Virus record (IMG/VR): IMGVR_UViG_3300032038_000031
Coordinates: 42,370 to 106,369 of that record
DNA from: a virus
Lineage: Duplodnaviria; Heunggongvirae; Uroviricota; Caudoviricetes
Strand: one strand, 5' to 3'
Length of the DNA: 64,000 nucleotides
In this document: one piece after another, positions 20,055-47,846 of the stretch
How positions within the stretch are numbered: position 1 is the first letter of the stretch
Layout of the letters: each line of letters begins with the position of its first letter
The notes under the pieces: model-generated
Databases searched by the model: none
What the model was told of the DNA's origin: nothing
What the model saw: only the letters and a program-made list of their open reading frames with translations
Program-made: the position numbers and the translations under genes

Positions 20055-20140
20055 GATTTTACCCTCGTTAGCATATATTTCTATCTTTGCCAGAGATATT
20101 AATGAAATATATACCCCCATGATGAGTGGGTTAAGTGTGT
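20055..20140. repeat. intron 5'-region repeat (similar to 47400..47465)
   Basis: cc(c/t)cgttagcatatat...atatacccc(c/t)atgatgagt(g/a)gg(t)taa in dnaE intron C and gyrB intron. Confidence 0.65.
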
Positions 20141-20153
20141 GAGCACCATTACA

Positions 20154-21876: not shown

Positions 21877-22085
21877 ATCAACTGAAAGAGGTCAAGAACC
21901 TCATTATTTTCAATAGCTGTCCAAATTTTTGAATCACTCATATCTAAAATTTCAGGATGTAAATATTTATTATATGCTTCTCTTAAAGTCATATTAGGAT
22001 CAATAACTTTATCTTTTTGTAACAATTTAATACATTGAGCAATTTTATCTTGGACTTTTGTTAATAATAGATCATATTTTGTCAT
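21877..22085 (-). CDS. dnaE: DnaE exon 2 (MTKYDLLLTK...EVLDLFQL)
   Basis: joins exon 1 ...CEAAG|MTKYDLLL ~ DnaE 'vEalGLLKMDFLGL'; 'VLDLFQL' ~ 'GVFQLES'. Confidence 0.6.
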
Positions 22086-22099
22086 CGTGTATATCCATT

Positions 22100-22215
22100 A
22101 TTTCTAATGGCACTGACTATATCTTACTTATTATAAAATAATAAGAATACCGTTTCGAACTGCGTACCAATAGCAGTCCTACTCTACTTAATGTAGATAG
22201 TCGATAGGCACATCG
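22100..22215. repeat. intron 3'-region repeat (near-identical to 46262..46374)
   Basis: ctgactatatcttacttattataa...tttcgaactgcgta(c/t)caatagcag(t/c)cctactc shared by dnaE intron A and gyrB intron. Confidence 0.75.
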
Positions 22216-23115
22216 TTAAATATTTGTCCATGTTTTTCTATTTATAATATTTCTAACAGATGTTGTTGATACTTGAGGGTACAACTGATAGATTTTTGAA
22301 TTGCTAACTCCTTCATCGTGGAGTTTTCTAATATTTAAAACATCTTTTTCTGTTAGTTTAGCTCGTCCATTATTAGAACCTGCTTTTTTATTATTTTTTA
22401 TTTGACTATGCTTTTTTCGATTTTCTTCTGAGAACACTTCTGGCATAACCAATTTATATTTATTACCATAATAAATATTCCAAAAACTCCATTTATCTTT
22501 GAACCTGTTTTTATATGGTTTAAAAGCTTGTTCCCAATCAATGCCTTCTGCATACATATTCCTTAATTGCACAACTTCGTTATAAGTTAATTTATTTCGT
22601 GAAGTAAATTGATTAGAAAATTCTGAATTAAATGGATAAATTGGAGTTGAGGTTTTTATATTTTTGTATGTTTTATCTAAATAAACATCTTTAAAGGCTG
22701 CATAAGAAATTTTATCTGAAAATTTTTCATACAATACATATTCAGGAATATCTCTATGGTCTTTTATATATTGAGCTTCTTCATTAGTTAAAACAGCTTT
22801 TCCATTATCTTCACCATATCTTTTTTTAAGTTCAGGCTGAATAAAATTCATACCACCTTTAGCTACATTATAACCATTTGGAACTAAAGTATTTTCCTTT
22901 TCTATATGTTCCTGTTCTAACTTAGATGCTTCTTCAAGCGATAAATTAGAAAATAAAACTTCAAAAATAAAATTATCTACCCCGTATTTTTGAATAGCTT
23001 TTCCAATAACCATTTTTTTATTATATTTATGATTATTCCATCTTTTTTTATAATCATTTGTAATACCAATGTATTTTTTATTATTTTTTTTATTCGTTAT
23101 TCTATATAAAAACAT
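22216..23115 (-). CDS. GIY-YIG homing endonuclease
   Basis: MFLYRITNKKNNKKYIGITNDYKKRWNNH GIY-YIG; RBS AAGGAGAAAG. Confidence 0.8.
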   Translation of the reverse strand: MFLYRITNKKNNKKYIGITNDYKKRWNNHKYNKKMVIGKAIQKYGVDNFIFEVLFSNLSLEEASKLEQEHIEKENTLVPNGYNVAKGGMNFIQPELKKRYGEDNGKAVLTNEEAQYIKDHRDIPEYVLYEKFSDKISYAAFKDVYLDKTYKNIKTSTPIYPFNSEFSNQFTSRNKLTYNEVVQLRNMYAEGIDWEQAFKPYKNRFKDKWSFWNIYYGNKYKLVMPEVFSEENRKKHSQIKNNKKAGSNNGRAKLTEKDVLNIRKLHDEGVSNSKIYQLYPQVSTTSVRNIINRKTWTNI

Positions 23116-23338
23116 TTCTTTCTCCTTTCTTCTAAGATTTTATAAATCTTATTTTATTACCCTCTTAATAAAATAAGTTTTAGTCTGAACAAATTTAACA
23201 ACTTCGCCCGGGATTATCTTCAACTCAACTTGCTAAGACTTCCCCGGTAGCTATATAGGTATTTTTTACTTACAATTTCTTTGCCTATATAACCTCGCTG
23301 GTAAGGCGATTAGATATTATTGGGCTAGACTTTCGTTA

Positions 23339-25246
23339 ACCCGCTGCTTCACACATATGAAGATCATATTGAGTAATAATTTCTCCACTAGGAGTTTTCA
23401 TAAAACAGCCAAATGTATATGGATCTTCATCAAATAAAATAACGCCTGATGCATGAGAACCTCTTTGCTTAATAAGTCCTTCTATGCTGATCATAATTTC
23501 AAACAATCTATCATATTTATTTACTTCATTGATAAATGAAGTTACTGGCTTTCGACCTTTATTAGGATTACCATACATGACATCTTTTAATGTCCATAAA
23601 AATCCTCTTTCTTGTGGAATAAGTGAAGATAAATATTGAGCCGTATCGACATCAATTCCATCTGGATATTTTTCACTCGTATATCCTCGACAAGCTGTTA
23701 AAATAGCACTTTTTGTGCTCTCTGTCCCAAAAGTCGCAATTAAAGTACAACCCAAATTTTTCTTACTTAATTCATCAATTTCTGGAAGAAACTTTGCTCC
23801 TCTTTCTTCTTTAATCTTTTGTAAAATTAAAGGTCTTTTTGATGGACAAAGATCAATATCAATATCGCCTAATTCTGACCGAGCCTTGTTGAGATACCTC
23901 CAGAAAGGAAGCTCCCATTTTATCGGATCAAGCTGTGTGATTCCTAACAAATAATGATTCAACCCTGAACAAGAAGAACCTCTTCCCGCTCCAACAGTAC
24001 TTCCACAATCCCAAAATAAATCTACATAATGTTGTAAAGTAATTGGGTATGAAAACATATTAGTTTCTAGTACTTTACTAATTGTTAATTTAATATCCGC
24101 TTCTTCTTCTAATCTTGATAAATAAATACCATGTAATTGTTTATCAATAACTTTTTGTTTTTCTTTGTCTAACAATGATAAACAACATTCATTAATCCAA
24201 TAACGATGATGTTGATCATCACTACTATTAAGAAAACTTAAAGTAGGGAAATTTTTATTATCAACTAATAAAGAAATATTATTTTTAGGATAATTTTTAA
24301 CCTCTACTTTTGGAATAGTTTGTTTATGTCTTAAACTATAATTTTCGATTTTATCAAAAATTTCCATTGAATTATTACATAATATCTTATATTGTTCTAA
24401 ATCAATTCCACTTGGAATTAAATTTTCTAAAATTTCTTCTTCTTTTTGTAAAAAAGCATATTGATAAAAACTATCAACTTCTCGTTCGCCATTTTTAGAA
24501 TTTAAATACGCTTTATGAACATATCTATCTTCTGGTCTTAAAAAATGTGAGTCTGTACCAATTACAACTTTTAAGCTAAATGACTTTGCTATTGATAATA
24601 GTCTTTTATTTACTTCAATTTGTTCTTTTGATTGCCCTGGAGCAATTTCTATATAAAAATCATCATGAAATAAAGATATGCAAAATAAAATAAATTTTAC
24701 AATCTTGTTATGATATAAAGTAATATCATCTACAATTTGATGTTTTTCTGCTTCTATTAAATTTTTTGTTAATGTTGAAAGCTCTCCACCTAAACAAGCA
24801 GTTGACGCAATTAAACAATTAGGATATTTATTTACAATTTCTTGTAAATCTGAGTATAAAGTAACTACTCTTTCTTGTCCTCTATCAACAAAAGAATTCA
24901 TCCAAGCTCTTGAAGATAATTCTCTTAAAGCTCGATGACCTTTTTTATTTTTTGCTATTAAAATAAAATGATAATATTTTTGACCTTTTTCTCTTGTTTC
25001 ATTTAAATAAATTTCATTACCTAAAGCAATTTTAAAATTTGGATACTTTTTTTGAATTTCTTCACTGTATATATTTACTTCCATATGAGAACATAAGGCA
25101 TCGTGATCTGTAATCGCAATGCCTTTTAATCCTATCTCAATAGCTTTATCAATTAAAGCCTTTGGTTGAGTTATACAATCAAGAAGTCGAAGATTTGAAT
25201 AACAAGTATGAGAATGAATTTCCATTCTTGGAATTATACTATTCAT
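23339..25246 (-). CDS. dnaE: DnaE exon 1 (PHP domain + palm)
   Basis: MEIHSHTCYSNLRLLDCI...ITDHDAL PHP motifs; ends ...TQYDLHMCEAAG. Confidence 0.75.
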
Positions 25247-33951: not shown

Positions 33952-34764
33952 TCATTTTAGGAGTTCTTCAAATTTATCTTTTTTTCTTTTCATATATAAA
34001 TTTGAAGATGTATTGTATAATACATTATATATTTTTTGACATTTTTCTTTAGTATATCCATAAACTCTATATAAAGTCACATTTTTCTTTGGGCACAAAG
34101 AATAAGATAATTCTATACCTTCTTTTTTAAAGAAATCAATAATCTTTTCTGCTATTTTTTTTCTACTTACATCAATTTGCCAAGTTACTGTCTTTCCAGT
34201 TAATTTAATTGATCCATCTCCATCAAATAATCCTCGAATATAATCTTTGTAATATTTTATCTTTAGCTGCTCTGGAAAGTTATATTCTTCACTATATGTT
34301 TTATTAGGAACAATATTGTACTTTTGCAAATCTTGCTTAATTTGTTTTGAATAAAAATAAAGTTTGCTATTTTGATAACCTTTACTAGTTTCATAATCTT
34401 TTACAGGTCTTTCATTTTCAATAACTTTATTCATTTTTTCTAATAGTTCTTTATCTTTTCTTTGTAATTCTATATAAATTTGATTTTCATTTTTATTTAC
34501 ACTACCATCAGAAGCTAACATTCCTATCCAATAAGCCATATCTTCACTTTGTTTTTGAAAAAAAGTATGATTTACCCATAGCTTGTTCACATTTGTTTCT
34601 TGAATATTCTTTATTGGAATATTATATTTTAATAATATTTTTTTTACTATTTTATCACTGACTGGAATAAAAGCTCCTGATTTTTTTTGCCCATAATGTA
34701 AAACCGTATAATTATATATTATTTTTTTTTCTTGTTCTTCTGTCAATATAATTGATTTACCCAT
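33952..34764 (-). CDS. LAGLIDADG homing endonuclease
   Basis: YWIGMLASDGSV and RGLFDGDGSI; RBS AAAGGAGGA. Confidence 0.8.
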   Translation of the reverse strand: MGKSIILTEEQEKKIIYNYTVLHYGQKKSGAFIPVSDKIVKKILLKYNIPIKNIQETNVNKLWVNHTFFQKQSEDMAYWIGMLASDGSVNKNENQIYIELQRKDKELLEKMNKVIENERPVKDYETSKGYQNSKLYFYSKQIKQDLQKYNIVPNKTYSEEYNFPEQLKIKYYKDYIRGLFDGDGSIKLTGKTVTWQIDVSRKKIAEKIIDFFKKEGIELSYSLCPKKNVTLYRVYGYTKEKCQKIYNVLYNTSSNLYMKRKKDKFEELLK

Positions 34765-34903: not shown

Positions 34904-35301
34904 AGGGTGGCAAAAATTTTACCATAAGGAATATCTCCTATAGCATCAACACCATAACTACCATCTTCTCTTTTGGCGTTGGCACATATATACTGTTCAC
35001 AATAATCATATGCAATATCAGCAGTATCTATAATAACTGTTTCGAAACGCTCTTTTAAGCGGTCATCTTTTAAAGCTTTTAGAATTTTTTTAAATTCTCC
35101 CCAAGAATTAACTGGCATAGCATTTGCTCCAGGAATTGCAGAGTATCCTTTTTCAAAAGCTATCAGGAGATGCTTGGGAAATTTTGTAGCAATGGTTGTT
35201 TTCCCACTTTTAGGTTCTCCAAAGAATAGCACTGAATAGCCTCTCATATCACGAGATACTTTGTGTGGCTCAATATTTAAAAGTTCGTCTACCATAGACA
35301 T
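34904..35301 (-). CDS. AAA_24/Sak4-like ATPase exon 1 (Walker A GEPKSGKTT, Walker B VIIDTAD)
   Basis: P-loop + hhhhD; ORF stops 1 codon after inferred splice point. Confidence 0.6.
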
Positions 35302-35377
35302 ATATTCATGTCCCCTTTCAATTATCTTATATTTATAAAGTGTCTAGAATAAAATCTAGACACTTTAATTAATTAAA

Positions 35378-36358
35378 TTAAAATTTCCAATTAGAAGGAT
35401 CAATTCCTACTGTGTTTGTAACAGTACCTGTTGGTACAGCTGATGACATAATAGGATTATTTTGTTTTTCTTGCTGAGAAGCTAAATATTCTTCTCTATT
35501 TTTAACTGTTTCAGCCCACTTAACTTCTCGGTCTTGAAGAGCTTTTACAATCTCATCTTGAGTAATAGTCTTTTCATCATTAAATTCATAAGGGATTTTA
35601 GATGTGCCAATAATAATCCAATCTTTAATAGGAGTTTCTTGAATTTCTACTAGAGAGTTTTCTTCTCCACCAAAAGCAGATTCAATAACATTTGGTGTTT
35701 TATTTACTGTATTAATAATTTTACCCCAAACTTTAGTATAAACAGGTTCTGCTTCTGTAACTCCATCTAAATTTTCTTCAAAGAATTTCATTCCTAAAGG
35801 ATTTCGTACACTATATGTAATTGGAATAATTTCATTTCTAAAATTAAAGATATAACCAGAAACTCTAGTAAAATCTTCTTTAATCTTTTCAGATGCATCA
35901 ACATGACTTACTCTAGTAATTACCATATCAGTAGTAAAAGTACATCTTTTTGTAATATCATCAGTAAGTGAAGAAACAATATTTACAAAACCACCTTCAC
36001 ATCTCTTTGATGTAATTCTTTTACCTTCCTTATCTGGAAATTCATTTAAAGCAATAGCTGTTTGAATTTTAACTTTTAAAGCTTTTTCTTTTCCATCTTT
36101 TATCCATTGAGGACCAGCCATAATATCTTTTAAAGCTTTAAAAGTATTGTTAGGTGTCCCCTTTTTTGTTAAAGGTGAAACATAAGTAAAGTGTACAGTT
36201 ACAACATTCAATCCTTCTTCATCAGTAGCAATCTGTAAGTTACCTTGAATAAAATCTTTTCCAAAATTTTTACTTTCTGTATTTTTTACTTTTGAAAGAG
36301 CCAAATTTTGCTCAAATACATATCCTTGAATTTCTACTTTATTAATTTGTTTCTTCAT
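35378..36358 (-). CDS. hypothetical protein (possible ssDNA-binding/annealing partner of Sak4-like ATPase)
   Basis: 326 aa; position between Sak4-like ATPase and regulator; no motif recognised - function is inference from context only. Confidence 0.3.
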   Translation of the reverse strand: MKKQINKVEIQGYVFEQNLALSKVKNTESKNFGKDFIQGNLQIATDEEGLNVVTVHFTYVSPLTKKGTPNNTFKALKDIMAGPQWIKDGKEKALKVKIQTAIALNEFPDKEGKRITSKRCEGGFVNIVSSLTDDITKRCTFTTDMVITRVSHVDASEKIKEDFTRVSGYIFNFRNEIIPITYSVRNPLGMKFFEENLDGVTEAEPVYTKVWGKIINTVNKTPNVIESAFGGEENSLVEIQETPIKDWIIIGTSKIPYEFNDEKTITQDEIVKALQDREVKWAETVKNREEYLASQQEKQNNPIMSSAVPTGTVTNTVGIDPSNWKF

Positions 36359-36374
36359 AACAAAATCCTTTCTT

Positions 36375-36782
36375 TTAATTTACTTTGTATTTTTTACCTT
36401 TTTCTGTTAATTTATAATATACTGGACTATTTTTTTTATCTTCAATAACTTTTTCTACATAACCATCTTTGAATAATTTATTCATTGTTCCAGAAACAGA
36501 TCTTGAAGAAAGAAATAACAATTCACCAATTTGTCGAGCATTAAAACGACAATCTTGTTTTATTGATAATGAACTATTATTATATTTTTTAGTTTCTTCT
36601 TGTAAACATTGAATAATTTTTAAACCTTTTTCAGTAGGTTTATCATTTTCATCTGAAACTTTAATTAAATCTTGAAAGAAATCAAAAGCCTCTTCACTTA
36701 ACTTAATTTTGCCATTTTTTAATAATAAGTCAATTTCTTTAATAAAACAATCTTTTTTATTATTTTTCATTAATTTTTCCAA
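36375..36782 (-). CDS. winged-helix (MarR-like) DNA-binding protein
   Basis: ARQIGELLFLSSRSVSGTMNKLFKDGYVEK HTH + wing. Confidence 0.45.
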   Translation of the reverse strand: MEKLMKNNKKDCFIKEIDLLLKNGKIKLSEEAFDFFQDLIKVSDENDKPTEKGLKIIQCLQEETKKYNNSSLSIKQDCRFNARQIGELLFLSSRSVSGTMNKLFKDGYVEKVIEDKKNSPVYYKLTEKGKKYKVN

Positions 36783-36805
36783 CCTTTAAATCTTTTGATA
36801 ATTTA

Positions 36806-36836
36806 TTATATCAAAATTTTTTATTAAAATCAATAA
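36806..36836 (-). promoter_or_regulatory. phage promoter family copy
   Basis: TTGATTttaataaaaaatttTGATATAAT. Confidence 0.5.
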
Positions 36837-36845
36837 AAATTAGAT

Positions 36846-37523
36846 TTAAGACTTTTTATTTGGCTTTCTATGACATTTTGCATTATTTTCAGGACAATAA
36901 CCTATTAATGCACATTTTGGTTGAAAATATGTTTTAATTATATCTGCCCATTCTTCATCATAATCACTTAATGCCTTCATTATATCTTTCATTAATTGAC
37001 GATATTCCCAATAGGCTCTTGAACAAAGTCTTTGATGACTCATATCTATTAAATTTCTTAAATTAGTTCTTACCACTATTCTTGTTTCCATACCAAGAGG
37101 TAAAATATTTGCAATATCTTCATTAGGAATACCTAATTCTGTTAATTTTTTATCAGCATCTTGAATAGCTTTAAATATATCTTCATATATATCTTTTGCG
37201 GCGGGATCTGCTAAAATGCTTGGAGGTGTTATATATTTGAAATTATCATAATTTATATAACGAGTGGAAGCTTGTAATCGTGTAGGTCCACCTCCAATAT
37301 GAGTATAAAACTCTCGAATAACTCTAGCAGAATATCCATCTATAATTAAAAATACCTGAGGAAATTCTGCTGTTCTCATATGCCCATTTTCAAAGCATTT
37401 CTTTCCTCTTTTTTTATTTTTTTCATCATCACTAGTATCAGCTCCCCAACATTCTCCTGCACATTTTCCAGCAAGAGTATAAGGATAATGACTAGTTTCT
37501 TTTAGTACTAAAACTTCTTTCAT
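36846..37523 (-). CDS. thyX: ThyX-like flavin-dependent thymidylate synthase homolog with non-canonical RHR motif (THI)
   Basis: GHMRTAEF..IDGYSARVIREFYTHIGGGPTRLQASTRY and NLRNLIDMSHQRLCSRAYWEYR match ThyX fold motifs but RHR->THI. Confidence 0.55.
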   Translation of the reverse strand: MKEVLVLKETSHYPYTLAGKCAGECWGADTSDDEKNKKRGKKCFENGHMRTAEFPQVFLIIDGYSARVIREFYTHIGGGPTRLQASTRYINYDNFKYITPPSILADPAAKDIYEDIFKAIQDADKKLTELGIPNEDIANILPLGMETRIVVRTNLRNLIDMSHQRLCSRAYWEYRQLMKDIMKALSDYDEEWADIIKTYFQPKCALIGYCPENNAKCHRKPNKKS

Positions 37524-38495
37524 TTAACCATTCCCCTTTGTCATATTATAATTTCCAAAAGCATTTGCTTGATAAAGATCAATAAAAAATTTTTCTTTTT
37601 TATCTAATTCTATTTTATTATTACATTGTTCTAACAATTCAAAAGTAAAATTCCATAAACCAAATTCTTGCATATCTTTATATAATCTATTTGAGGCGGG
37701 GGCATCTATTCCACAACCGCATTTCATATGTTGCTTTAATCTGTTAGCTACATTCACGCTTTGTCCAATGTAGCATAATTTATTTTGAATATTGGTAATT
37801 TTGTAAATACCACAAACTGCATCAGTTGTACCTAAAATTCTATCACATAAAATTTTAGATTTTTTTTGAAAGAATTGTGACCAAATTACTTTATTTAAAA
37901 TAATTGGCTGAGATAAAGTTTTTTTACATTGTTGTAATTTAACTATATCAGATAATTCTTCTTTTGTTATATCTATTTTATAAAAATTTATTTTATTTTC
38001 TTTTTGTTCTTCTCTTATTTGTGCCTGTCGTCCCGCAGATAAAGAGTTTTTTAAATCAATAACCTCTTGTTTTGTAGATTGATAATCATTTTGTAGAATA
38101 GCAATTTTTTGGTCATATTCTTTTTCTACTTGTTGATAATGTAATTCCAAAGTATTAGAAAAGTTTTGAAATGATTGTGTTGATTTATCAGAAGTTTTTT
38201 TTAATATAGAAATATTCTTTTCTAATTGTTGTAATTCTTTAGTTTGTTTATCCAAAATATGCTTTTGTTTTTCAAAAAGAATTTGCATATTATCATAAGC
38301 AATATTTTGTTTTTTTAAAGTTTCTTCCTTTTGTAAGATGTTTTCTTTTAAAACATTTTGTTGTTGTGTTAATTCATTTATTTTAATTCTTTGATTTTTT
38401 TTATTTCGTCTTGTTTTTATTATATTAAATAACGCATAAAAAATTAACCAAAGACTTACTATTATTAATATTATACAAACAATTTTCATTAACAA
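37524..38495 (-). CDS. membrane-anchored coiled-coil protein with C-terminal GIY-YIG nuclease domain
   Basis: N-terminal TM helix (IVCIILIIVSLWLIFYALFNII), ~200 aa heptad-rich K/Q/E region, C-terminal CGIYKITNIQNKLCYIGQS...R..E...N. Confidence 0.6.
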   Translation of the reverse strand: MLMKIVCIILIIVSLWLIFYALFNIIKTRRNKKNQRIKINELTQQQNVLKENILQKEETLKKQNIAYDNMQILFEKQKHILDKQTKELQQLEKNISILKKTSDKSTQSFQNFSNTLELHYQQVEKEYDQKIAILQNDYQSTKQEVIDLKNSLSAGRQAQIREEQKENKINFYKIDITKEELSDIVKLQQCKKTLSQPIILNKVIWSQFFQKKSKILCDRILGTTDAVCGIYKITNIQNKLCYIGQSVNVANRLKQHMKCGCGIDAPASNRLYKDMQEFGLWNFTFELLEQCNNKIELDKKEKFFIDLYQANAFGNYNMTKGNG

Positions 38496-38562
38496 ATTCC
38501 TTAAAAAAATAGATTAGATTAGAAATATAATCTAATCTAATCTAATATGCATTTAGAATAAT

Positions 38563-38823
38563 TTATTCTGCATCTGGATCAAAGTTACGACCTTTATCTG
38601 TTAGCTGAATAAACTTAACGCTCTTATGCTTACCATCTTCAACTTCAATTTCAGCTGGAATTCTTTCCATTAGATTCTTCTTCTGGAAGCTCATTGTAAC
38701 TACGCCATTTACTGACTTAACTGGTACACCAGTTGCATCTGCAATATCCTGTGCTGTGAACTGCTGTCCATCGTGTTCCTTTACATAATCATAAATTACT
38801 CTTGACTTTTCTGTTAGTGCCAT
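38563..38823 (-). CDS. small HTH DNA-binding protein; compositional outlier (GC-richer codons)
   Basis: TAQDIADATGVPVKSVNGVV HTH-like; codon usage visibly less AT-biased than neighbours; flanked by two hairpins. Confidence 0.45.
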   Translation of the reverse strand: MALTEKSRVIYDYVKEHDGQQFTAQDIADATGVPVKSVNGVVTMSFQKKNLMERIPAEIEVEDGKHKSVKFIQLTDKGRNFDPDAE

Positions 38824-38918
38824 TTTAAATAATCTCCTTTTATTTCTTAAATTTATTTATATTAAAGTAATTAGTTTTAATTACTTATAATCTATTATAA
38901 CAAAAAATTTTTAAAATT

Positions 38919-39119
38919 TCAACATAATTTTTTATTCATAATTTCTGCATCTATTGCAAGTAAAATTGTCAACATATCTTGTTCTGGATATTTTTGGGAA
39001 ATTTCTCCCACTATATTATAAATTTCATCTTCAATTAATTTTGAATTTTTGCCCATCTTTTTTTGTTTTTCTAATTGAGCAATTCTTTTACTATATTTTT
39101 TTATATCTTTCTTTTTCAT
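38919..39119 (-). CDS. hypothetical protein
   Basis: 66 aa, own promoter-like element upstream. Confidence 0.35.
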   Translation of the reverse strand: MKKKDIKKYSKRIAQLEKQKKMGKNSKLIEDEIYNIVGEISQKYPEQDMLTILLAIDAEIMNKKLC

Positions 39120-39143
39120 ATATTTTATTATATCAAAAAATTT

Positions 39144-39989
39144 TTATAATTGCAAATAATTCTTAATGAAGTTTTCTTCTGAAATAATAGGAATGCCTTT
39201 TTCTTTTGCAGCTTTATTCTTTGCTGTCATAGATTCTATATCATTGTTAACTAAACAAAAAGTTTTATTTGTAATATTATTTGATACTTTTCCTCCTAGA
39301 GATTCAATTTTTTCTTTTAATTCATTTCTATTCTTAAAAGAGTGTAGTTTTCCTGTAATTACGATAATTTTATCCATTAATGCGGAGTTCTCTTGTATGT
39401 TTATTTTTTCTTCTTTTTGAATATGAATATCTTTATTTGCAATTAATTGATCTGCTATTGAAAAATCATAAGATAATAAAGCAGATTTTTTACTTTCTCC
39501 AAAATCTGGAAGTTCACAAAAATCATAATTATCATTAATAGCATCTCTTAATTCTTCATAAGTAAAGAATTTTTCACACAATTTTTTAGCTACAGTTTTT
39601 CCAATTAATGGTATTCCAAGAGCTGAAATAAAAGCAGACAAACTACAATTCCTACTATATTCAATAGCATTAAGAATATTATCTACTGATTTTATTCCAA
39701 AACCTTCTTTTTTAATCCAATCTTCTCTATGCTTATTTAAAGTAAAAATATCTAATGCGGATGTTACCCAACCCCAATTTATTAATTTATTAAGAGTAGC
39801 TTTAGATAGTCCTTTTATATCTAAACCTTTTTTCCCGCAAAAATATTCTAATCTATTAAGTAAACGTGATTTGCATTGTTCATTAGGACAAAATAAAATC
39901 TTACTATTATTTTCTTGTTTAATTATTAATTCTGTATTGCAAATGGGACAATTTTTTGGAATTTCAAAATATATATATTGCATTATCAT
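39144..39989 (-). CDS. ligA: NAD-dependent DNA ligase C-terminal fragment (Zn-finger, HhH, BRCT) - separately translated
   Basis: CPICNTEL...CPNEQC Zn finger, HhH region, IVITGKL...LGGKVS..KT..LV BRCT; own RBS AAGGAAGA; ATGA overlap with upstream ORF. Confidence 0.75.
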   Translation of the reverse strand: MIMQYIYFEIPKNCPICNTELIIKQENNSKILFCPNEQCKSRLLNRLEYFCGKKGLDIKGLSKATLNKLINWGWVTSALDIFTLNKHREDWIKKEGFGIKSVDNILNAIEYSRNCSLSAFISALGIPLIGKTVAKKLCEKFFTYEELRDAINDNYDFCELPDFGESKKSALLSYDFSIADQLIANKDIHIQKEEKINIQENSALMDKIIVITGKLHSFKNRNELKEKIESLGGKVSNNITNKTFCLVNNDIESMTAKNKAAKEKGIPIISEENFIKNYLQL

Positions 39990-40276
39990 TCTTCCTTATT
40001 TTTTAATATTTTTACTATAGCTTCTGCATGATTTTTATTCAAAGTATAACAATATACTTCTCCAGTAGTAGCACGATACCATGGAATAATATCATAACTT
40101 TCATACTCTCCATTATGGTCATTCCAATGAATAACTAAAGGTTGTTTATCCGCATCCAATTTCCCATAGTATTTTTCTGTTAATATTCCAACTTTTGCCC
40201 AACGGATAATAATATATATATTTATAGCTTTACTATATTTTCTTTTTAATAATAACTGTTTAAATTTCTTTAGCAT
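39986..40276 (-). CDS. hypothetical protein inside ligA split
   Basis: 96 aa, AT-rich, no ribozyme-like structure; coupled to ligA-C. Confidence 0.4.
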   Translation of the reverse strand: MLKKFKQLLLKRKYSKAINIYIIIRWAKVGILTEKYYGKLDADKQPLVIHWNDHNGEYESYDIIPWYRATTGEVYCYTLNKNHAEAIVKILKNKEE

Positions 40277-40964
40277 ATTTATTTTTTTCCTTTTGATAAT
40301 TTAAAATTTGTTCCATGTGCTTTAACCAAAAATCTAAATCATAATCTAATTTCATTAAATTACAATATTTACAAGCTGGAGTACAATTATTTTTGTTATA
40401 GCCTTTTTGAGAATCTATACGGTCTATTCCTATTAAACCTTGTGAATCGCCACAGTAGCTACAAGGTTGAGAAGTTAATGTTTTAAAATCTTGAAAAGTC
40501 AAATTAAAATCAATATTTCTTTTTCGAGCATTTTTTTTATATATATTATATCTACCTTCTACTGAAGAAGTTTGACATTGTTTACATTCTCCTGAATATC
40601 CATCTTTTTGAGCCACATTTTTCCAAAAATCAGAAAGTGGAAGCCATTGTTTGCATCTAAAACATTTTTTCTTAATTATATTACCTTGTTCATCTCTAAT
40701 ATGAATTTTAATATCTGCTAAATTAGCTATTGTTTTTAATCGCTCACAACCACAATTAGTAGAAGTGTGTGCTTTTAAAGTTCTTGCGGAAACAGGTTTG
40801 GTTGTATGTTTATCGCATTGACATTCACAAACCCACATTGCTTTTCCACTGTTATCATTTGTAGTTCTATATAAAACTCTCCATTTTCCAAAGATCTTAT
40901 TTGTTAAATCTTCAGCTCTTCCTATTGATATTTTCGGAAAAATTTTTAAGTATTCACTATCCAT
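40260..40964 (-). CDS. free-standing HNH endonuclease (Zn-module + HNH) inserted in ligA
   Basis: GKWRVL..WVCECQCD module; CSYCGDSQGLIGIDRIDSQKGYNKNNCTPACKYCNLMK HNH; overlaps ligA-N end by 19 nt. Confidence 0.7.
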   Translation of the reverse strand: MDSEYLKIFPKISIGRAEDLTNKIFGKWRVLYRTTNDNSGKAMWVCECQCDKHTTKPVSARTLKAHTSTNCGCERLKTIANLADIKIHIRDEQGNIIKKKCFRCKQWLPLSDFWKNVAQKDGYSGECKQCQTSSVEGRYNIYKKNARKRNIDFNLTFQDFKTLTSQPCSYCGDSQGLIGIDRIDSQKGYNKNNCTPACKYCNLMKLDYDLDFWLKHMEQILNYQKEKNKYAKEI

Positions 40965-42199
40965 TTTCCATTTTCATCCTTTGCACGTTCTATTTTAGGG
41001 ATAATTTGATTTCTCTTTGATACTTCTATTATTTGACCTTTAAAAGGATGTAGTCCTAATGTTTGATGCATAATAGAAATATTTGATAAACTTGCACGAG
41101 AAATTTCCGTTCCATCAATATTTATTTTTTCAAATAGAGCAACTGGTGAAATTTGACCAGTGCGACCCATACTCCATAAAATATCTATTAACTTTGTTTC
41201 ATATAAATCATCTGTAAATTTAAATGCAATACCTCCACGAAAATGATGATCTGTATAACCTAATTTATTATAAATATCTGTATCATCAATTTTTACAACT
41301 ATGCCATCAATAGGATATTCTTTTTCTTTTGCAATATTTACTAAATTTGTAATTACATTTTCTATTTTCTCTAATGTTTGTTGATTATTAGATAAGATGT
41401 CATAAGGAACAACAGTAAAACCTAAACAGTCTAAATAAAATAATTTACTATGTAAATTTTTAACTAATAAATTGTTTGTATTATCTATAGATATTAAATC
41501 CCAAGCAACAAAAGATAAATGCCTTTTTGCACATTCCTCTGAAGATAACAGTCTAATACTTCCCGCAGCAAAATTTCTCGGATTACTATAACTTTTTATT
41601 TTATGCTGGTTAAAGTTTTGATAAGTACAAATAATTTCCCCATCAATAGTTAAGTTACCTTTTGCTTCAATACGATTAGGGATTGAGGGAATTACTAAAG
41701 CATTATGTAAAATATCTTCTCCAATTTCTCCATCTCCTCTTGTTTCTGCTCTTACCAAATAACCATCTTGATAAGATAAAGAACAAGTAAGTCCATCTAA
41801 CTTATTCATTAAAATAATTGGCTCACAAGAATCAGAGTTAGATACAGATTTTGAAAAATTTAATAATGTATTAATATCTTTTGTCTTTTGTAAAGATAAC
41901 ATTTTGTGGTTATGTTTAACCTTATTTAGCTTAGATACAGTATTATAATTAATCTTTTGAGTAGGAGAATTATCACAATAATAACCAGTCTTTTGTTCTA
42001 GTTGAACAAGTAGAAAATAAAACTTATCCCAATCCATATCTGTCAATCCACTATCAAGTCCTTCATCATAAGCAATAGTAGCTTTATTTAATATTGGAAC
42101 AATCTTATTAATTATTTCTATTCTCTTATTGTTATCTTCATTTATAGTAAGTTCAGTTACACCTTGTTGATATAACTCTGCTAATTGATTATCTAACAT
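40946..42199 (-). CDS. ligA: NAD-dependent DNA ligase N-terminal fragment (adenylation + OB domains)
   Basis: KLDGLTCSLSY (KxDG), RAETRGDGEIGEDI, ends GQIIEVSKRNQIIPKIERAK ~ LigA 'GDtVvirRAGdVIPqV'. Confidence 0.8.
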   Translation of the reverse strand: MLDNQLAELYQQGVTELTINEDNNKRIEIINKIVPILNKATIAYDEGLDSGLTDMDWDKFYFLLVQLEQKTGYYCDNSPTQKINYNTVSKLNKVKHNHKMLSLQKTKDINTLLNFSKSVSNSDSCEPIILMNKLDGLTCSLSYQDGYLVRAETRGDGEIGEDILHNALVIPSIPNRIEAKGNLTIDGEIICTYQNFNQHKIKSYSNPRNFAAGSIRLLSSEECAKRHLSFVAWDLISIDNTNNLLVKNLHSKLFYLDCLGFTVVPYDILSNNQQTLEKIENVITNLVNIAKEKEYPIDGIVVKIDDTDIYNKLGYTDHHFRGGIAFKFTDDLYETKLIDILWSMGRTGQISPVALFEKINIDGTEISRASLSNISIMHQTLGLHPFKGQIIEVSKRNQIIPKIERAKDENGKWIVNT

Positions 42200-42237
42200 A
42201 TAAAATTCTCCTTATTTATTTCTAAATAATTATATCA

Positions 42238-42265
42238 AAATATTTTATAAAAAGCAATTTTTATT
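42238..42265 (-). promoter_or_regulatory. phage promoter family copy
   Basis: TTGCTTtttataaaatatttTGATATAAT. Confidence 0.5.
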
Positions 42266-42360
42266 TTGAAAAATCCAAAACCTACTTTTGGTTTTAAAAT
42301 ACGGTCAAGCACACCCCGAAGAAAAATTTTTATAAATTATGATTAAGGATTTTTCCTTAA

Positions 42361-44694
42361 TCATAATTTTACTACTGCGGTTGCAGTAGATTTTATCATC
42401 ATATTTCCTAGACTTTGTCTACTTAATTTTGGAATATCTTTTGCAGAAATACAAATACTATTAGTTGGTCCGATAACAACAATATTATCTTCATCATTAA
42501 TCATTTCTGCTCCAATAATTTCATGACTATTTTTGGTTACAAAAATTCCTTTTCCGCCTTTAGACTGGATAGGAAATTCTTTAAGTTCAATTTTCTTTCC
42601 TAGCCCTTCAGCGGTAAATATTCCTACATAATCATTAGTATTATGAATAGGTAATACTGCAATAACTTCATCATCATCGTTTCTTAAATTAATACCTTTA
42701 ACCCCACTTGTAACTCTTCCTATTGGTGAAATTGTATTAGTTTCAAAACGAATTGCTATACCCTGTTTAGTTATTAAAATTAATTCTTCATCATTTAAAA
42801 AGGTTACTTTAGAGATAGAATCTCCATCTTTTATTTTAATTGCTGTAATACCATTTCGTTTAGTCTTAAAATATTCTTCTATTTTTGTTTTCTTTACCAA
42901 TCCATTTTTAGTAATAAATACAACATATTCAGCCTTACTCTTTCTATATAGAGAGGTAATAGCAATAATATGTTCTTCAGGAGGCAAAGAGATAAGGTTG
43001 TTAATTGGTGTTCCTTTTTCCGCATTTGTCCCTACTGGTACACTATCAACAAGTAAACGATACATCTTACCTTGATCAGAAAACATCATTAAAGTGTCAA
43101 CAGTATTAGTAGAAATACAATTTAATAAAGTATCATTTTGAGTTTTTACTCCTTTTCCAAATCTCTTTTGAACTTTAAAATTTTTACTTGGGACTCTTTT
43201 AATATTTCCGCCTTTAGTCATTACAACAACACAATCTTCTGGGGCAACTGCCTCTATTTCTTTTTCATTAGAAGATGCATTAATTTGAGTAATTTCAGTT
43301 CTTCTTTTATCTCCAAATTTTTTAACAATTTCATTTAAACGATTTCTTAATTCTTGAATTTGAATAGATTTATTTAATAATAGAGCTTTTAAATCAATTA
43401 CTTTTTTATCTAAATCACTTTTTTCTTGTTGTAATTCAATTTTTTCTAATCCCGCTAATCTACCAAGTTTCATATCTACAATAGCTTTTGCTTGATTATC
43501 TGTAAATTTATATATCTTAACAAGATTATCTTTTGCGGCAACTGAAGATTTTGATTTTTTAATTAAACTAATAATATTATCAATATCCTCTAAAGCTCTA
43601 ATAAGACCGTCTACAATTTCTAACCTTGCTTGGGCTTTTGCTAAATCAAATTTAGCTTCTTTGCTAATACAAGAAAGATTATGATTAACATAAATCATAA
43701 TACAATCTTTCAAATTTAATTCAACTGGAGTTTTATCAACAAGTCCTACTTGATTATAAGATACACTGGTTTGAAGTCCAGTTTTAGCAAAAAGTTTTTG
43801 AACAACAGAATCTAAAGATACATCTTTTTTACACTCAATGACAATACGCAAACCTTTTTTGTTACTTTCGTTACGAACATTTTTAACTCCAACAATTTCT
43901 TCATTATCACAAGCTTTACCAATCTCCGCTAAAAGATTTTCTGTATTTTGTCCATAAGGAATTTCATAAAAGACAATTTTATTTTTTTCAAAAGTATATT
44001 TTCCTCTAACTTTAATACTACCATGCCCAGTTTTCATTATTGCGGGGATATCCTTTTGATTAATGATTACTCCTCCTGTTGGGAAATCTGGACCGGGTAG
44101 ACTTGGTTCTTTACCATCCAAATAATCATTAATGGCAGTTGCAACTTCTCCTAAATTATGAGGTAGCCATGAGCAAGCAATAGCGACACCTATGCCACTA
44201 TTAGGGTTACATAGTAAATTTGGAAAAATTGAAGGCAAAGTTGTTGGTTCAAAATCATTTTCATCATAATTTGCAATAAAATCAACATTTTTTTTCTTTA
44301 AATTATTTAATAAACCTAATTCTGCAATTTTAGATAATCTTGCATTTGTATATCTATAAGCGGCTGGTCCATCTCCATCAATATTTCCCATGTTACCATG
44401 AAAATCAATAAGTGGATATCTCATAACCCAAGGCTGAGATAATCGAACCAATGCTCCATATACAGAAGAATCACCGTGAGGATGCCATTTACCAATGACA
44501 TCTCCGACAATTCTAGCACACTTTACATAAGGTTTATTAGAAGTATATTTACCATCATAACCTGCCCATAAAATTCTTCGTGCTACTGGTTTTAGTCCTG
44601 TTCTAGCGTCAGGTAAACTACGATCTGTATTAACTGCCGCCGCATATTCTATAAAATTTGTACTTAATTCATTAATAATATCATTAGTTTGCAT
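42361..44694 (-). CDS. gyrA: type IIA topoisomerase A subunit (GyrA/ParC-like)
   Basis: LPDARTGLKPVARRIL, HPHGDSSVY, catalytic AAYRYTNARL; 777 aa. Confidence 0.85.
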   Translation of the reverse strand: MQTNDIINELSTNFIEYAAAVNTDRSLPDARTGLKPVARRILWAGYDGKYTSNKPYVKCARIVGDVIGKWHPHGDSSVYGALVRLSQPWVMRYPLIDFHGNMGNIDGDGPAAYRYTNARLSKIAELGLLNNLKKKNVDFIANYDENDFEPTTLPSIFPNLLCNPNSGIGVAIACSWLPHNLGEVATAINDYLDGKEPSLPGPDFPTGGVIINQKDIPAIMKTGHGSIKVRGKYTFEKNKIVFYEIPYGQNTENLLAEIGKACDNEEIVGVKNVRNESNKKGLRIVIECKKDVSLDSVVQKLFAKTGLQTSVSYNQVGLVDKTPVELNLKDCIMIYVNHNLSCISKEAKFDLAKAQARLEIVDGLIRALEDIDNIISLIKKSKSSVAAKDNLVKIYKFTDNQAKAIVDMKLGRLAGLEKIELQQEKSDLDKKVIDLKALLLNKSIQIQELRNRLNEIVKKFGDKRRTEITQINASSNEKEIEAVAPEDCVVVMTKGGNIKRVPSKNFKVQKRFGKGVKTQNDTLLNCISTNTVDTLMMFSDQGKMYRLLVDSVPVGTNAEKGTPINNLISLPPEEHIIAITSLYRKSKAEYVVFITKNGLVKKTKIEEYFKTKRNGITAIKIKDGDSISKVTFLNDEELILITKQGIAIRFETNTISPIGRVTSGVKGINLRNDDDEVIAVLPIHNTNDYVGIFTAEGLGKKIELKEFPIQSKGGKGIFVTKNSHEIIGAEMINDEDNIVVIGPTNSICISAKDIPKLSRQSLGNMMIKSTATAVVKL

Positions 44695-46249
44695 ACTTTG
44701 CCTCCTTAGAATACATCTTTATAAATTCTTTTCTTGGCAATACTGATCCGCCCATTAAATCATCAAAAAGCTCATCAGATTTATCTACATCTTCTACTGT
44801 AATTTGTTTAATAATTCTTTGATCAGGGTTAACCAATACTTCAGTTTCCTCTGCATCCATTTCGCCTAATCCTTTTAAGTGCTTTACCTTAAAATTCTTA
44901 CCAATGTGTTTTTGTTTATATTCCTCTAATTCATTATCATCTTTTAAATAAATAATTTTATCCTTAGTTTCTTCAATACAATATAGAGGAGGAACTCCAG
45001 CATATACATATCCTTCCTCAATTAGTTTAGGACAGAAAGTCCATATAAAAGTATAAAAGAGGTTCTTAATATGACTTCCATCAACGTCGGCATCTGACAT
45101 AATAATGATTTTCCCATATCGCAACTCATCTCGATCAAAAGTTAATTTCATTGTTTTTAAATCAACTTTTAGTCCAAAAGCTTCAATCATTGTCATAATT
45201 TCCGCATTTTTTTGAATCTTATCTAGAGTCGCTTTTCTGACATTAAGTATTTTTCCTCTTACTGGAATAACCGCTTGATATTCATTATTTCTTGCAGTCT
45301 TTAAATTACCACTAGCACTGTCACCTTCTGTGACATATACTTCACACTTTAATCGATCTTGAGAATAACAGTCTGCTAATTTAGAATCAAATTTTAAAGC
45401 TTTCTTCTTTTTTATGTTTTGTTTATTTCTAATATTATCTCTTGCTTTTTTTGCAGCTTCTCTTGCCTTTCGGGCGGAAATGGCTTTATCTGCAATAGCT
45501 TTTACTTCTTTTTTATTTTCAGATAACCAATATTGAATTTTATCTGTCAACGCCTGAGTAAAAGGTTTCATATCAATTTTAGTAATTGTACTTTTGACTT
45601 GAGCATCATAAGCAATATTCGGAGCAGTTAAATTAAAAACAATATACATACCCTCTTGAATATCTTCGCCAGATAAATTAGCATCTTTTTCTTTTAGCCA
45701 TTTTTCTTCTCTAAAGAATTTATTAAATTCACGAGTAATTAAAGTTTTAATTTGTGTAATATGAGGACCTTTTTCTGTTAAACCAGTATTGACATAAGGT
45801 ACAATAGTCATTGAATAGTTTGAAGTATAAGTAAGAATAAAATCCATTTTATTTTTACCTTCCGCCATTTGTACTTCACATCTATTTTTTATAATTTCTT
45901 TATCTTTAATTGCTTCATCAACTAAATCATTTAATCCATTTTTAGAATAATAAGTTAATATTTTCTTATCTTTTGGATTATCTGTTTTTTGTATTGTTAA
46001 TTCTATTGTCAACCCTGGACATAAGCATACAATAGTTTTAAATAAAGATTTAACTTTTGGTAATTCAACACTAGTATTAGTAAAAAATTCTTCTGATGGT
46101 TGCCATACAACCTTTGTACCATTTGGTGCTGTTGTTTTACCAGATTTTCTTTCTACAAATTCTCCTTCTTTAAAACTAACCTCTTCCCATAGACCATCTC
46201 TATTTGTTGTTACAGTGCAACAATGTGATAAGAAATTTGTGATTTTGCT
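44684..46249 (-). CDS. gyrB: type IIA topoisomerase B subunit (GyrB/ParE-like) exon 2 (transducer + TOPRIM)
   Basis: begins SKITNFLSHCCTVTTNRDG (~VSVVNALSEWLEVTVKRDG); EVYVTEGDSASG and IMSDADVDGSHI TOPRIM. Confidence 0.8.
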   Translation of the reverse strand, partial: SKITNFLSHCCTVTTNRDGLWEEVSFKEGEFVERKSGKTTAPNGTKVVWQPSEEFFTNTSVELPKVKSLFKTIVCLCPGLTIELTIQKTDNPKDKKILTYYSKNGLNDLVDEAIKDKEIIKNRCEVQMAEGKNKMDFILTYTSNYSMTIVPYVNTGLTEKGPHITQIKTLITREFNKFFREEKWLKEKDANLSGEDIQEGMYIVFNLTAPNIAYDAQVKSTITKIDMKPFTQALTDKIQYWLSENKKEVKAIADKAISARKAREAAKKARDNIRNKQNIKKKKALKFDSKLADCYSQDRLKCEVYVTEGDSASGNLKTARNNEYQAVIPVRGKILNVRKATLDKIQKNAEIMTMIEAFGLKVDLKTMKLTFDRDELRYGKIIIMSDADVDGSHIKNLFYTFIWTFCPKLIEEGYVYAGVPPLYCIEETKDKIIYLKDDNELEEYKQKHIGKNFKVKHLKGLGEMDAEETEVLVNPDQRIIKQITVEDVDKSDELFDDLMGGSVLPRKEFIKMYSKEAKYAN

Positions 46250-46261
46250 CGGTTATTCTTA

Positions 46262-46374
46262 TGTTTCCATAAGCCCTGACTATATCTTACTTATTATAAG
46301 TAATAAGAATGTCCATTTCGAACTGCGTATCAATAGCAGCCCTACTCCTCCGATCCGAGGATAGTCGATACAGC
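46262..46374. repeat. intron 3'-region repeat (copy of 22100..22215)
   Basis: see above. Confidence 0.75.
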
Positions 46375-47298
46375 TTATTGTTTTTTTCTTATTGGATATT
46401 TTTCATTTTTTTGTCGATATGTTGTTCCACAATTTATAGAACTTATTGTTTTTGGTTTTACATTAAATTCATTTGCAATTTTAGACATTGTTTTATTAGG
46501 TTCTTTTTTAAGTTGTTCTATAATTGAAATTACTTGTTCTTGAGTTAATTTTTTTGAACCAGTTTTAGATACTCTTAATGGATATTTTTCGTTTTCTCTT
46601 ATATAAGTTTTCCCATTATTAATATTATGAATTGTTGATTCTGCTACATTAAATTTATGAGCAATTTCTTTCATAGTTAAATTATTTTCTTTTAATAAAA
46701 CAAATATTTCATCTAATATCACTTCATCGAATTTAGAGTTATAATTTAATGTTCCTTTTTTAATCTTCTGAAATCCATTTCTAATAGGATAAATTTCAGA
46801 AGAATGAAAATAAGTTCTACCATTGTTTATATAAGATAAACAATTTAAATTAATATGATATTTTTTTGCTATATCTGTCATAGTTTCTTTACAAGCTTTT
46901 AATTCTTGATAAATTTGTTGAATCTGTTCTTCTGTAAAATTTGCTTGAGAATTTTTGCTACCTATATCAGCTCCATCTCCGCCTTCAGATATATTATATC
47001 CAAATTCTCTATTGTTACTATGATATTTAGCAATCCAATATTTTTCTCTTTTTCGCATTAACTCTCTATTTTCAGCATCTATTTCTTCTAAAAGAATAAA
47101 ATCTTTTATTTTACCGTATTTTTGTATTGCTCTTTCAATAGGTAAATTATTTCTAAAATCAAAATTATGCTCAATCATTCTTCGTCTTATATTGTTACTA
47201 ATTCCAATATATTTTTTATTATTGGGAAAAAGAATCATATAAACACCAGAATAAATATGCTGTTTATCAGAGAGTTTTTGTAAATTTAATTTTTTCAT
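46375..47298 (-). CDS. GIY-YIG homing endonuclease
   Basis: IYSGVYMILFPNNKKYIGISNN..R GIY-YIG; RBS AAAGGTGG. Confidence 0.8.
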   Translation of the reverse strand: MKKLNLQKLSDKQHIYSGVYMILFPNNKKYIGISNNIRRRMIEHNFDFRNNLPIERAIQKYGKIKDFILLEEIDAENRELMRKREKYWIAKYHSNNREFGYNISEGGDGADIGSKNSQANFTEEQIQQIYQELKACKETMTDIAKKYHINLNCLSYINNGRTYFHSSEIYPIRNGFQKIKKGTLNYNSKFDEVILDEIFVLLKENNLTMKEIAHKFNVAESTIHNINNGKTYIRENEKYPLRVSKTGSKKLTQEQVISIIEQLKKEPNKTMSKIANEFNVKPKTISSINCGTTYRQKNEKYPIRKKQ

Positions 47299-47399
47299 AT
47301 AAGAATACCACCTTTGTGTCTTGATACTCTATATGAAAAATATCCAAATTGAATTAAACAATCTTGCCACGGGATTACCATGCTTTATTAAAGTTTAGG

Positions 47400-47465
47400 C
47401 TTCCCCGTTAGCATATATATTATTTATTATATATATACCCCTATGATGAGTAGGTAAAGACATAA
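47400..47465. repeat. intron 5'-region repeat (copy of 20055..20140)
   Basis: see above. Confidence 0.65.
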
Positions 47466-47480
47466 CAGGCAGTTTTATCT

Positions 47481-47846
47481 ACCAATGCCAAAAGAGCCTA
47501 AAGAAGTGCCCTCATATGCACCATCTTCTCGATATTTACCAGAAGTATTCAGTACTGAAAAAGCGGCTTCAAGAATTGATTTTCCATCTTCTCTAAAAGA
47601 ATTACAAATAAAACCTTGACCATAATCTTGTACTACTATTGTATTATCTTTTTCGTATATATATACTTCAATTTTATTACCATGTCCTAATCGAAATTCA
47701 TCAACCGCATTTGAAATAATTTCAACCAATAGCTGAGTTGAATAAGTAGTATCCCCTGCATACACCTGAGGTCTTAATCTTGTAAAAGCCAATGGGTCTA
47801 ATGACTCAATACTATCCTCTGTGTATAAATTGTTATTTGTAGACAT
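47481..47846 (-). CDS. gyrB: GyrB/ParE-like exon 1 (GHKL ATPase N-terminus)
   Basis: LLVEIISNAVDEF (N box), VQDYGQGF (G1), LNTSGKY...GTSLGSFGIG (G2). Confidence 0.8.

Follow-up and report, generated by a model that had tools for sequence, protein, structure and literature searches.

Probable fission of a phage DNA ligase gene, ligA, by a free-standing HNH homing endonuclease gene

The four genes of the ligA locus

The DNA ligase gene ligA of the Caudoviricetes virus record IMGVR_UViG_3300032038_000031 is found in two parts, which are separated by two further genes. In this study, we analyzed this locus within a 64,000-nt stretch of the record, hereafter the window, in which positions are numbered from the first letter. 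The list of open reading frames (ORFs) gives four genes at the locus, in 5' to 3' order:

40946..42199, minus strand: LigA-N, the N-terminal part of the ligase, 417 amino acids (aa), stop TAA
40260..40964, minus strand: HNH ORF, 234 aa, stop TAA
39986..40276, minus strand: orf96, 96 aa, stop TGA
39144..39989, minus strand: LigA-C, the C-terminal part of the ligase, 281 aa, stop TAA

LigA-N overlaps the HNH ORF by 19 nt (40946..40964), orf96 overlaps LigA-C in the tetranucleotide ATGA at 39986..39989, and 956 nt (39990..40945) lie between the stop of LigA-N and the start of LigA-C. An earlier description made from the letters alone (hereafter the sequence-only reading) had given the four ORFs, both overlaps and the length of the gap, and all of these agree exactly with the ORF list. 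The end that it gave for LigA-N has to be corrected, as the protein terminates in ...AKDENGKWIVNT and not in ...KDENG. The GC content of the locus is 25-28% throughout, and a purine-rich site precedes each of the four ORFs. A promoter scan of the locus returned promoter-like matches at the level expected from shuffled sequence, and a terminator scan of the same region revealed no convincing internal terminator. The four genes would probably be co-transcribed and yield four separate proteins.

LigA-N matches the Pfam families DNA_ligase_aden (PF01653, E 9e-54) and OB fold (PF03120, E 1e-15), and it aligns with residues 11-392 of the LigA of T. filiformis in solved structures. Its adenylation motif, KLDG, is intact and aligns to KVDG in the T. 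filiformis enzyme. The N-terminal domain Ia confers NAD+ specificity on LigA. At E<=0.01, no Nlig-Ia Pfam match was present in LigA-N; the structural alignment of its Ia-like N-terminus begins at query residue 31 and LigA residue 11, this region reads YD...D..WD where LigA has YY...D..YD, and precomputed PF22745 matches exist for relatives. LigA-C comprises zinc finger, HhH, and BRCT domains (Pfam) and aligns with residues 403-655 of the same solved structures. Since the two proteins align to residues 11-392 and 403-655, respectively, the break sits in the linker between the OB fold and the zinc finger. The domains of LigA are thus not carried on one polypeptide in this phage: the first reading frame closes with TAA after the OB fold, and the zinc finger has its own ATG ahead of it. 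Of the two, LigA-N forms the catalytic half, with the Ia-like N-terminus, the nucleotidyltransferase domain, and the OB fold, and LigA-C is the DNA-clamping half, with the zinc finger, HhH, and BRCT domains.

Both halves have their own translation signals. A Shine-Dalgarno sequence, AAGGAG, stands 8 nt upstream of the LigA-N start. The sequence-only reading had held that LigA-C restarts at a ribosome-binding site of its own; such a site is indeed present, but the start itself needs to be moved to the second ATG, at 39983. Because a well-spaced AAGGAAG lies 9 nt before this codon, it is most likely the true start of LigA-C (MQYIYF...). The same start is common to the related sequences L021, L022, and L024, and matches the MKYIYF start of L002. 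In every split allele that we inspected at the sequence level, an ATG belonging to LigA-C itself stands where homology begins.

The HNH ORF matches the PHROG endonuclease VII/HNH families phrog_1035, phrog_3118, and phrog_374 (E 2e-22 to 6e-14) and, among PDB structures, the HNH restriction enzyme PacI (E 5e-5) over the motif IDRxDSxxGYxxxNxxxxCxxCNxxK. Homologues occur at the same position in L002, where the protein is 52% identical to that of the window, and in L021, against which the ratio of nonsynonymous to synonymous substitution rates (dN/dS) is 0.18. In addition, ORFs matching it in size and position were found in L035, L036, and L037. GenBank phages encode homologues that are 25-30% identical and lie outside ligase genes, and an IMG/VR scan with the HNH protein found nothing. 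We take the ORF, without being certain, for the gene of a free-standing HNH homing endonuclease of the beta-beta-alpha-metal type, PacI-like and rich in zinc ribbons, whose endonuclease activity and target are presumed.

The second gene of the gap, orf96, has homologues of 72-78% identity in the same slot of relatives, and its dN/dS against L021 is 0.24, as expected under purifying selection. The family comprises 103 representative clusters of proteins of about 100 aa, with the motifs IYxVxxWAxxG, PLVxxYxDHNG, and TTG and a predicted fold of a helix, a small beta-barrel, and another helix. Members accompany three different endonucleases, yet orf96 is missing from several split alleles, and distant members occur in contexts other than ligase genes. 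We therefore treat orf96 as a real gene, apparently cargo that settled in the ligase gap. It is translationally coupled to LigA-C, and it may have a role in ligase assembly, which cannot be an essential one. A function as a ligase-specific adaptor was considered and not adopted: split alleles exist without orf96 (L002, L004, L036, and L037), its distant relatives reside in unrelated contexts, and the small ORF found at the ligase genes of Vibrio phage D122 is not homologous. No match to orf96 was obtained by tblastn against GenBank phages, nor by an alignment scan of IMG/VR; a 50-sequence alignment of the family was too divergent for a pattern search. Metagenome scans with LigA-C and with orf96 found nothing either.

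Two further observations concern this family. The orf96 profile also matches giant repeat proteins (P0005, P0009, and P0021) of up to 2428 aa, with 32 matching stretches, which score on the Pfam families DUF2880, NinX, and Agenet by summed weak matches. Separately, a distant relative of orf96 adjoins a release-factor-like gene in L026.

Empty-site alleles, co-conversion, and endonuclease exchange

Relatives lacking the HNH insert, whose comparison the sequence-only reading had proposed as a check, do exist. The closest is L032 (Logan SRR33881088), which encodes a one-piece LigA of 704 aa. Its DNA is 96.5-98.6% identical to positions 47201..35206 of the window and has the same gene order, namely gyrB, gyrA, ligA, ORFs of 66 and 86 aa, a GIY-YIG ORF, and thyX. 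The empty-site sequence of L032 includes ...ANQIIPQVQSAEHKND.... A one-piece LigA is also encoded by 17 IMG/VR relatives (646-652 aa where complete, one copy being cut by a contig end). The insertion is thus present in one and absent from the other of two near-identical genomes, the window and L032. A megablast search against GenBank phages revealed no near DNA relative of the locus.

Along the ligase gene, the window and L032 are 98-100% identical down to about position 41190. Identity then falls to about 60% over 41190..40950, nothing aligns across the insert, and 98-100% identity is regained only from about 39845 on. Given these sharp breakpoints, the segment from about 39850 to about 41190 is, on the evidence of the alignments, an imported block of the following extent:

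~39850..41190, minus strand: the whole apparently imported homing cassette, ~1.34 kb, as delimited by comparing the window with L032 and with L021
40946..41190, minus strand: co-converted 3' flank of LigA-N, ~245 nt, the last ~80 codons, from the identity to L032 and L021 and from synonymous divergence (dS)
39850..39989, minus strand: co-converted 5' part of LigA-C, ~45 codons, ~140 nt, from comparison with the same-backbone alleles L032 and L033

The block, which would thus comprise about 245 nt of LigA-N, the HNH ORF, orf96, and about 140 nt of LigA-C, takes the place of about 390 nt of the uninterrupted L032 allele. At its LigA-C end, the head of the L033 protein differs from that of the window up to FCGKKG.

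The comparison with L021 complements that with L032. Window and L021 are 80-95% identical over 41200..39950, whereas the body of the ligase is just 55-65% identical. The 3' flank of LigA-N is 90-95% identical between the two, and dS is 0.33 in this flank vs 1.3 in the rest of LigA-N. The high identity of the block to L021, set against the low identity of the ligase body, indicates homing with co-conversion of the flanks. In a third pair, L002 and L004, identity is about 95% outside a stretch of roughly 1 kb that encodes an HNH protein in L002 and a GIY-YIG endonuclease in L004; its breakpoints fall in the ligase halves, some 250 nt into LigA-N and some 105 nt into LigA-C. Sharp breakpoints of co-conversion are thus found in three independent pairs (L002/L004, window/L021, and window/L032).

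Other relatives have different nucleases at this site. A GIY-YIG gene, together with an orf96 homologue, separates the ligase halves of L022 and L023. In L033 and L034, which share the backbone of the window, a 312-aa nuclease (PHROG HNH/homing-endonuclease families) is accompanied by a divergent orf96 homologue. Free-standing homing endonucleases are expected to leave such signatures, namely an insert that is polymorphic, co-converted flanks, and exchange for nucleases of unrelated families at one site (PMC2988022). The fission of ligA by such an element, as put forward in the sequence-only reading, is accordingly supported by the empty-site allele, the sharp breakpoints, the co-conversion of flanks, and the replacement of one endonuclease by another.

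Among the 120 clusters closest to LigA-N (52-89% identity), 104 consist of the N-terminal part only (366-409 aa) and 16 are full length. The genomic context was sampled in three cases, and in all three LigA-N is followed by a 223-234-aa ORF, with or without an ORF of about 98 aa, and then by LigA-C. From these counts and contexts, we conclude that the split state is the common one in the clade.

Origin of the split and function of the two-piece ligase

In our view, it is very probable that ligA underwent insertional fission by a free-standing HNH homing endonuclease gene and that its two halves are translated independently. The HNH gene, with orf96 as cargo, would have entered the linker between the OB fold and the zinc finger. 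Its arrival would be by double-strand-break repair, in which ligase sequence on either side, about 245 nt upstream and about 140 nt downstream, was copied along with it. The 5' end of the cassette would supply the last codons of LigA-N and its TAA stop, within the first 19 nt of the HNH gene, and the 3' end would supply the Shine-Dalgarno sequence and the ATG of LigA-C. In favor of this scenario, the data show directly how the locus is built, that the insertion is polymorphic, that the flanks are co-converted, that purifying selection acts on the genes, and that intron and intein signatures are lacking.

Some observations weigh against this scenario, or against parts of it. The HNH ORF has no Pfam match at all, and the canonical first histidine of the HNH motif is replaced by arginine (IDRID), as it is in PacI, which makes its nuclease activity uncertain. 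In L024 (ENA ERZ27256883), which is almost identical to the window, the HNH gene is split into ORFs of 154 and 80 aa by an A8-to-A7 frameshift (L024 1292..1995; about 40531..40538 in the window), while both ligase halves are intact; either the endonuclease gene has begun to decay there, or the assembly contains a homopolymer error. The 956-nt insert folds slightly better than shuffled sequences (z -2.2, 20 shuffles), and divergent phage introns that are AT-rich can escape the group I model of Rfam. Finally, the function of the two-piece ligase is presumed from selection and precedent, and no biochemical work on LigA and LigB of phage T5, the nearest precedent, turned up in our literature search.

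As to this function, both ligase halves are under purifying selection by the measure of dN/dS. Between the split alleles L002 and L004, outside the exchanged block, the ratio is 0.30 for LigA-N and 0.16 for LigA-C. We infer that the two halves form a working ligase, cooperating non-covalently on nicked DNA, as LigA and LigB of T5 presumably do. A decaying pseudogene, in which the insertion killed the ligase and the phage relies on that of its host, is an improbable alternative. Parting the catalytic from the DNA-binding half is expected to impair nick sealing, and the host has a LigA of its own. However, the sequence-only reading had named further lesions as the mark of such decay, and there are none: KLDG, the OB fold, the four zinc-finger cysteines, HhH, and BRCT are all intact, and the dN/dS values just given span both halves of the split alleles. 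Moreover, split alleles persist over lineages that are only about 50% identical, they predominate among the nearest clusters, and more than 400 genomes of T5-like phages have retained the same split. The phage has likewise kept a gene for a PncB-like nicotinate phosphoribosyltransferase (61032..62228, minus strand, E 8e-67), so that the NAD salvage gene noted in the sequence-only reading is real.

It is slightly less probable still that the halves are both maintained but no longer cooperate, with LigA-N acting as a lone minimal ligase and LigA-C having drifted into a DNA-binding or BRCT scaffolding role. Selection acts on both halves and the present data do not imply an interaction; N-terminal fragments of LigA also retain self-adenylylation in published domain studies. 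Against such a divorce, all genomes seen have the two halves next to each other, in unchanged order and with translational linkage, the halves are neighbors in T5 too, and none of the genomes that we inspected has one half alone.

An origin of the gap as a self-splicing intron, of group I or another type, would restore a one-piece ligA mRNA, with the endonuclease ORFs lying inside the intron. Phage group I introns frequently bear HNH or GIY-YIG ORFs, and LAGLIDADG ORFs, which are usually borne by introns or inteins, are present elsewhere in the window. Together with the folding of the insert and the limited reach of the Rfam model mentioned above, this is what speaks for an intron, which we nevertheless consider very unlikely. 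No Rfam intron family was matched in the region (E<=10), in the whole window (gathering score), or in five relatives (E<=0.1). The 956 nt are fully coding, and both ORFs in them are under purifying selection at the protein level. The gap of L002, L036, and L037 is taken up from end to end by one endonuclease ORF, leaving no space for a ribozyme core. In all alleles inspected at the sequence level, LigA-C has its own ATG whichever endonuclease is present, and the insertion lies in a poorly conserved linker and not in a conserved catalytic motif. We do not regard the z value of the insert as evidence for a ribozyme, as it is uninformative alone; a separate fold of 1051 nt was computed without shuffles. 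These results support two statements of the sequence-only reading, that the gap is not an intron and that the locus, with its uniformly low GC content, holds no GC-rich ribozyme candidate.

A fractured gene with split inteins, in which a free-standing endonuclease lies between gene halves whose products trans-splice, has been described in metagenomic phage-like DNA (Dassa et al., 2009; PMC2677866), yet it is hardly credible here, given that just 14 LigA-N residues follow the last conserved OB motif (IIPKI) and about 10 LigA-C residues precede the zinc finger, both tails amounting to roughly the normal 14-16-residue linker plus a few added residues, that Pfam detects no intein/Hint domain, and that orf96 is in a different frame and missing from several split alleles.

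Recoding of TAG was rejected as the cause of the split, because the genes of this locus end in TAA or TGA. In L002 (5938..8590) and L004 (4184..6835), in-frame TAG codons occur in the ligase, HNH, and GIY-YIG genes, and TAG is therefore read as sense there. In the window, 45 of the 51 long minus-strand frames end in TAA, 6 in TGA, and none in TAG, and in-frame TAG is absent inside the window ORFs called from their start codons.

Precedents, other split genes, and implications

The split of ligA is a new example of a known process and needs no new mechanism. The sequence-only reading had compared it with nrdA and mobE of the Aeromonas phage Aeh1. This comparison is apt. As expected of genes in pieces of the Aeh1 type, ligA is uninterrupted in relatives, has the endonuclease precisely between its two parts, and shows both parts intact and under selection. 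In Aeh1, an endonuclease has produced a gene in pieces for which both activity and the role of the tails have been shown (2007 PNAS; Crona et al., 2010, PMC3045599; review PMC2988022). The two systems share a free-standing HNH-family endonuclease between the halves of an essential DNA-metabolism gene, separate translation of these halves, and short terminal tails made by the insertion. They differ in that the target here is LigA and the break falls in an inter-domain linker and not inside a catalytic region, in that the present cassette has a second gene, orf96, and in that its site is polymorphic for three endonuclease types. Furthermore, activity and tail function were demonstrated for Aeh1, whereas the ligase described here is known from its sequence.

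A closer precedent for a ligase, missed in the sequence-only reading, is the ligA/ligB pair of T5. There, LigA (323 aa) ends in ...GVIPCIVERVYD and LigB (259 aa) starts with MKIEIPTQCPSCG, and the junction alignment places the split at the linker between the OB fold and the zinc finger. This split is kept in 445 T5-like records and in T5-like Vibrio phages, including D122, and PHROGs has separate families for the N-terminal and the C-terminal parts of the ligase. Enzyme and linker are thus the same as in the window. Unlike in the window, the T5 gap spans 202 bp, bears a promoter, and has no endonuclease, and in Vibrio phage D122 two unrelated small ORFs lie between the halves. Identity between T5 and the window LigA-N is about 27%. 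Because of this low identity, and because one-piece alleles remain on the backbone of the window itself, the split described here most likely arose independently of that in T5.

Other insertions and exchanges resemble parts of the ligA case. In gene 39/mobA/gene 60 of T4 and gene 43 of Aeromonas phage 25, which has a seg-like insert, endonuclease insertions likewise split topoisomerase and polymerase genes (PMC2988022). The host gene is a different one in these phages, and ligA has no translational bypass element. When SegH or Hef replaces mobC or mobE, unrelated endonuclease families swap at one locus with co-conversion of flanking markers (PMC2988022); at the ligase linker, it is HNH, GIY-YIG, and a third, 312-aa nuclease that alternate at one site. 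The fractured genes of Dassa et al. (2009) have the same order of N-half, endonuclease, and C-half in phage-like metagenomic DNA (PMC2677866). As ligA has no intein halves, protein splicing is not possible in our case. In the literature searched, we came across no description of a phage ligA that harbors a homing endonuclease. What appears to be new is the resident endonuclease in the ligA linker, the empty-site allele on the same backbone, the alternation of three nuclease families, and a plausible origin for ligases of the T5 type.

Three other genes of the window, dnaE, nrdD, and gyrB, are also in pieces around GIY-YIG, HNH, and LAGLIDADG ORFs, and since further essential genes are in pieces, the phage evidently tolerates such splits. 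The gene for a DnaE-type DNA polymerase III alpha subunit lies in at least three pieces within 17495..25246 on the minus strand:

23336..25246, minus strand: dnaE piece with PHP and NTPase domains
22216..23115, minus strand: GIY-YIG ORF in dnaE
20723..21676, minus strand: 317-aa ORF without Pfam match, in the dnaE region
20099..20536, minus strand: dnaE piece with the finger domain
19070..19990, minus strand: second GIY-YIG ORF in dnaE
17495..18880, minus strand: dnaE piece with HHH_6

The anaerobic ribonucleotide reductase gene, nrdD, is fragmented over about 11592..16791 on the minus strand, and the whole-window Rfam scan (gathering score) gave no intron at this locus:

15844..16791, minus strand: nrdD piece with the ATP-cone and positions 2-154 of the NRDD profile
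14860..15693, minus strand: LAGLIDADG ORF in nrdD
13226..13816, minus strand: HNH_3+NUMOD ORF in nrdD
12760..13377, minus strand: nrdD piece with positions 224-360 of the NRDD profile
11592..12512, minus strand: GIY-YIG ORF in the nrdD region

The gyrB gene is split over 44684..47846 on the minus strand, and in L033 (103..2515), on the same backbone, its second part is split again by another GIY-YIG ORF:

47475..47846, minus strand: gyrB piece with a weak HATPase_c match
46375..47298, minus strand: GIY-YIG+HTH (helix-turn-helix) ORF in gyrB
44684..46012, minus strand: transducer, Toprim, and C-terminal part of gyrB

Several other ORFs of the window are related to nucleases. A 323-aa ORF (37524..38495, minus strand) begins with a hydrophobic segment, continues into a long middle part resembling a coiled coil, and ends in a GIY-YIG domain, an architecture that is common to the L021, L022, and L024 sequences and unusual for a homing endonuclease. 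GIY-YIG ORFs of 311-324 aa occupy the same position beside thyX in L021, L022, L024, L032, L033, L035, and L037. A LAGLIDADG/Hom_end ORF of 270 aa (33952..34764, minus strand) lies between small ORFs, and its LAGLIDADG homologue in L032, of 266 aa, has the corresponding location. In L021 (5075..6082), the homologue of the 86-aa ORF of the window (38563..38823) is fused to an N-terminal module, giving a protein of 335 aa. This module is rich in zinc-ribbon motifs and has a nuclease-like motif, YxEYDGxQHF; it is also found in the 312-aa endonuclease that splits the L033 ligA. Outside these groups, the plus strand of the window encodes a BspA-type leucine-rich-repeat protein (4212..5756, E 3e-131).

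Altogether, the ligA alleles form a natural polymorphic series for one essential enzyme, in which one-piece alleles stand beside alleles split by an HNH gene, a GIY-YIG gene, or a third nuclease, some of them on near-identical backbones. This series allows tests of how a clamp-like ligase tolerates a cut in its linker, of what the endonucleases recognize, and of how far co-conversion reaches. As a conjecture that we hold possible but would not yet favor, the junction of OB fold and zinc finger in phage LigA may be a place where homing endonucleases land and displace one another time and again, and the long-annotated two-subunit ligase of T5 may be the scar left after loss of the endonuclease. 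The split enzyme might then be fully active, its halves closing around nicked DNA without a covalent link, and the tails (...KDENGKWIVNT and MQYIYFEI...) or orf96 might aid assembly, as the mobE-derived tails do for the NrdA of Aeh1. A concrete origin would thereby be offered for the two-gene ligase of T5-like phages, for which our literature search found no explanation. The ligase is one of at least four replication and nucleotide-metabolism genes that are in pieces in the window, which makes this phage a good model for how far a load of endonucleases can fragment a replisome.

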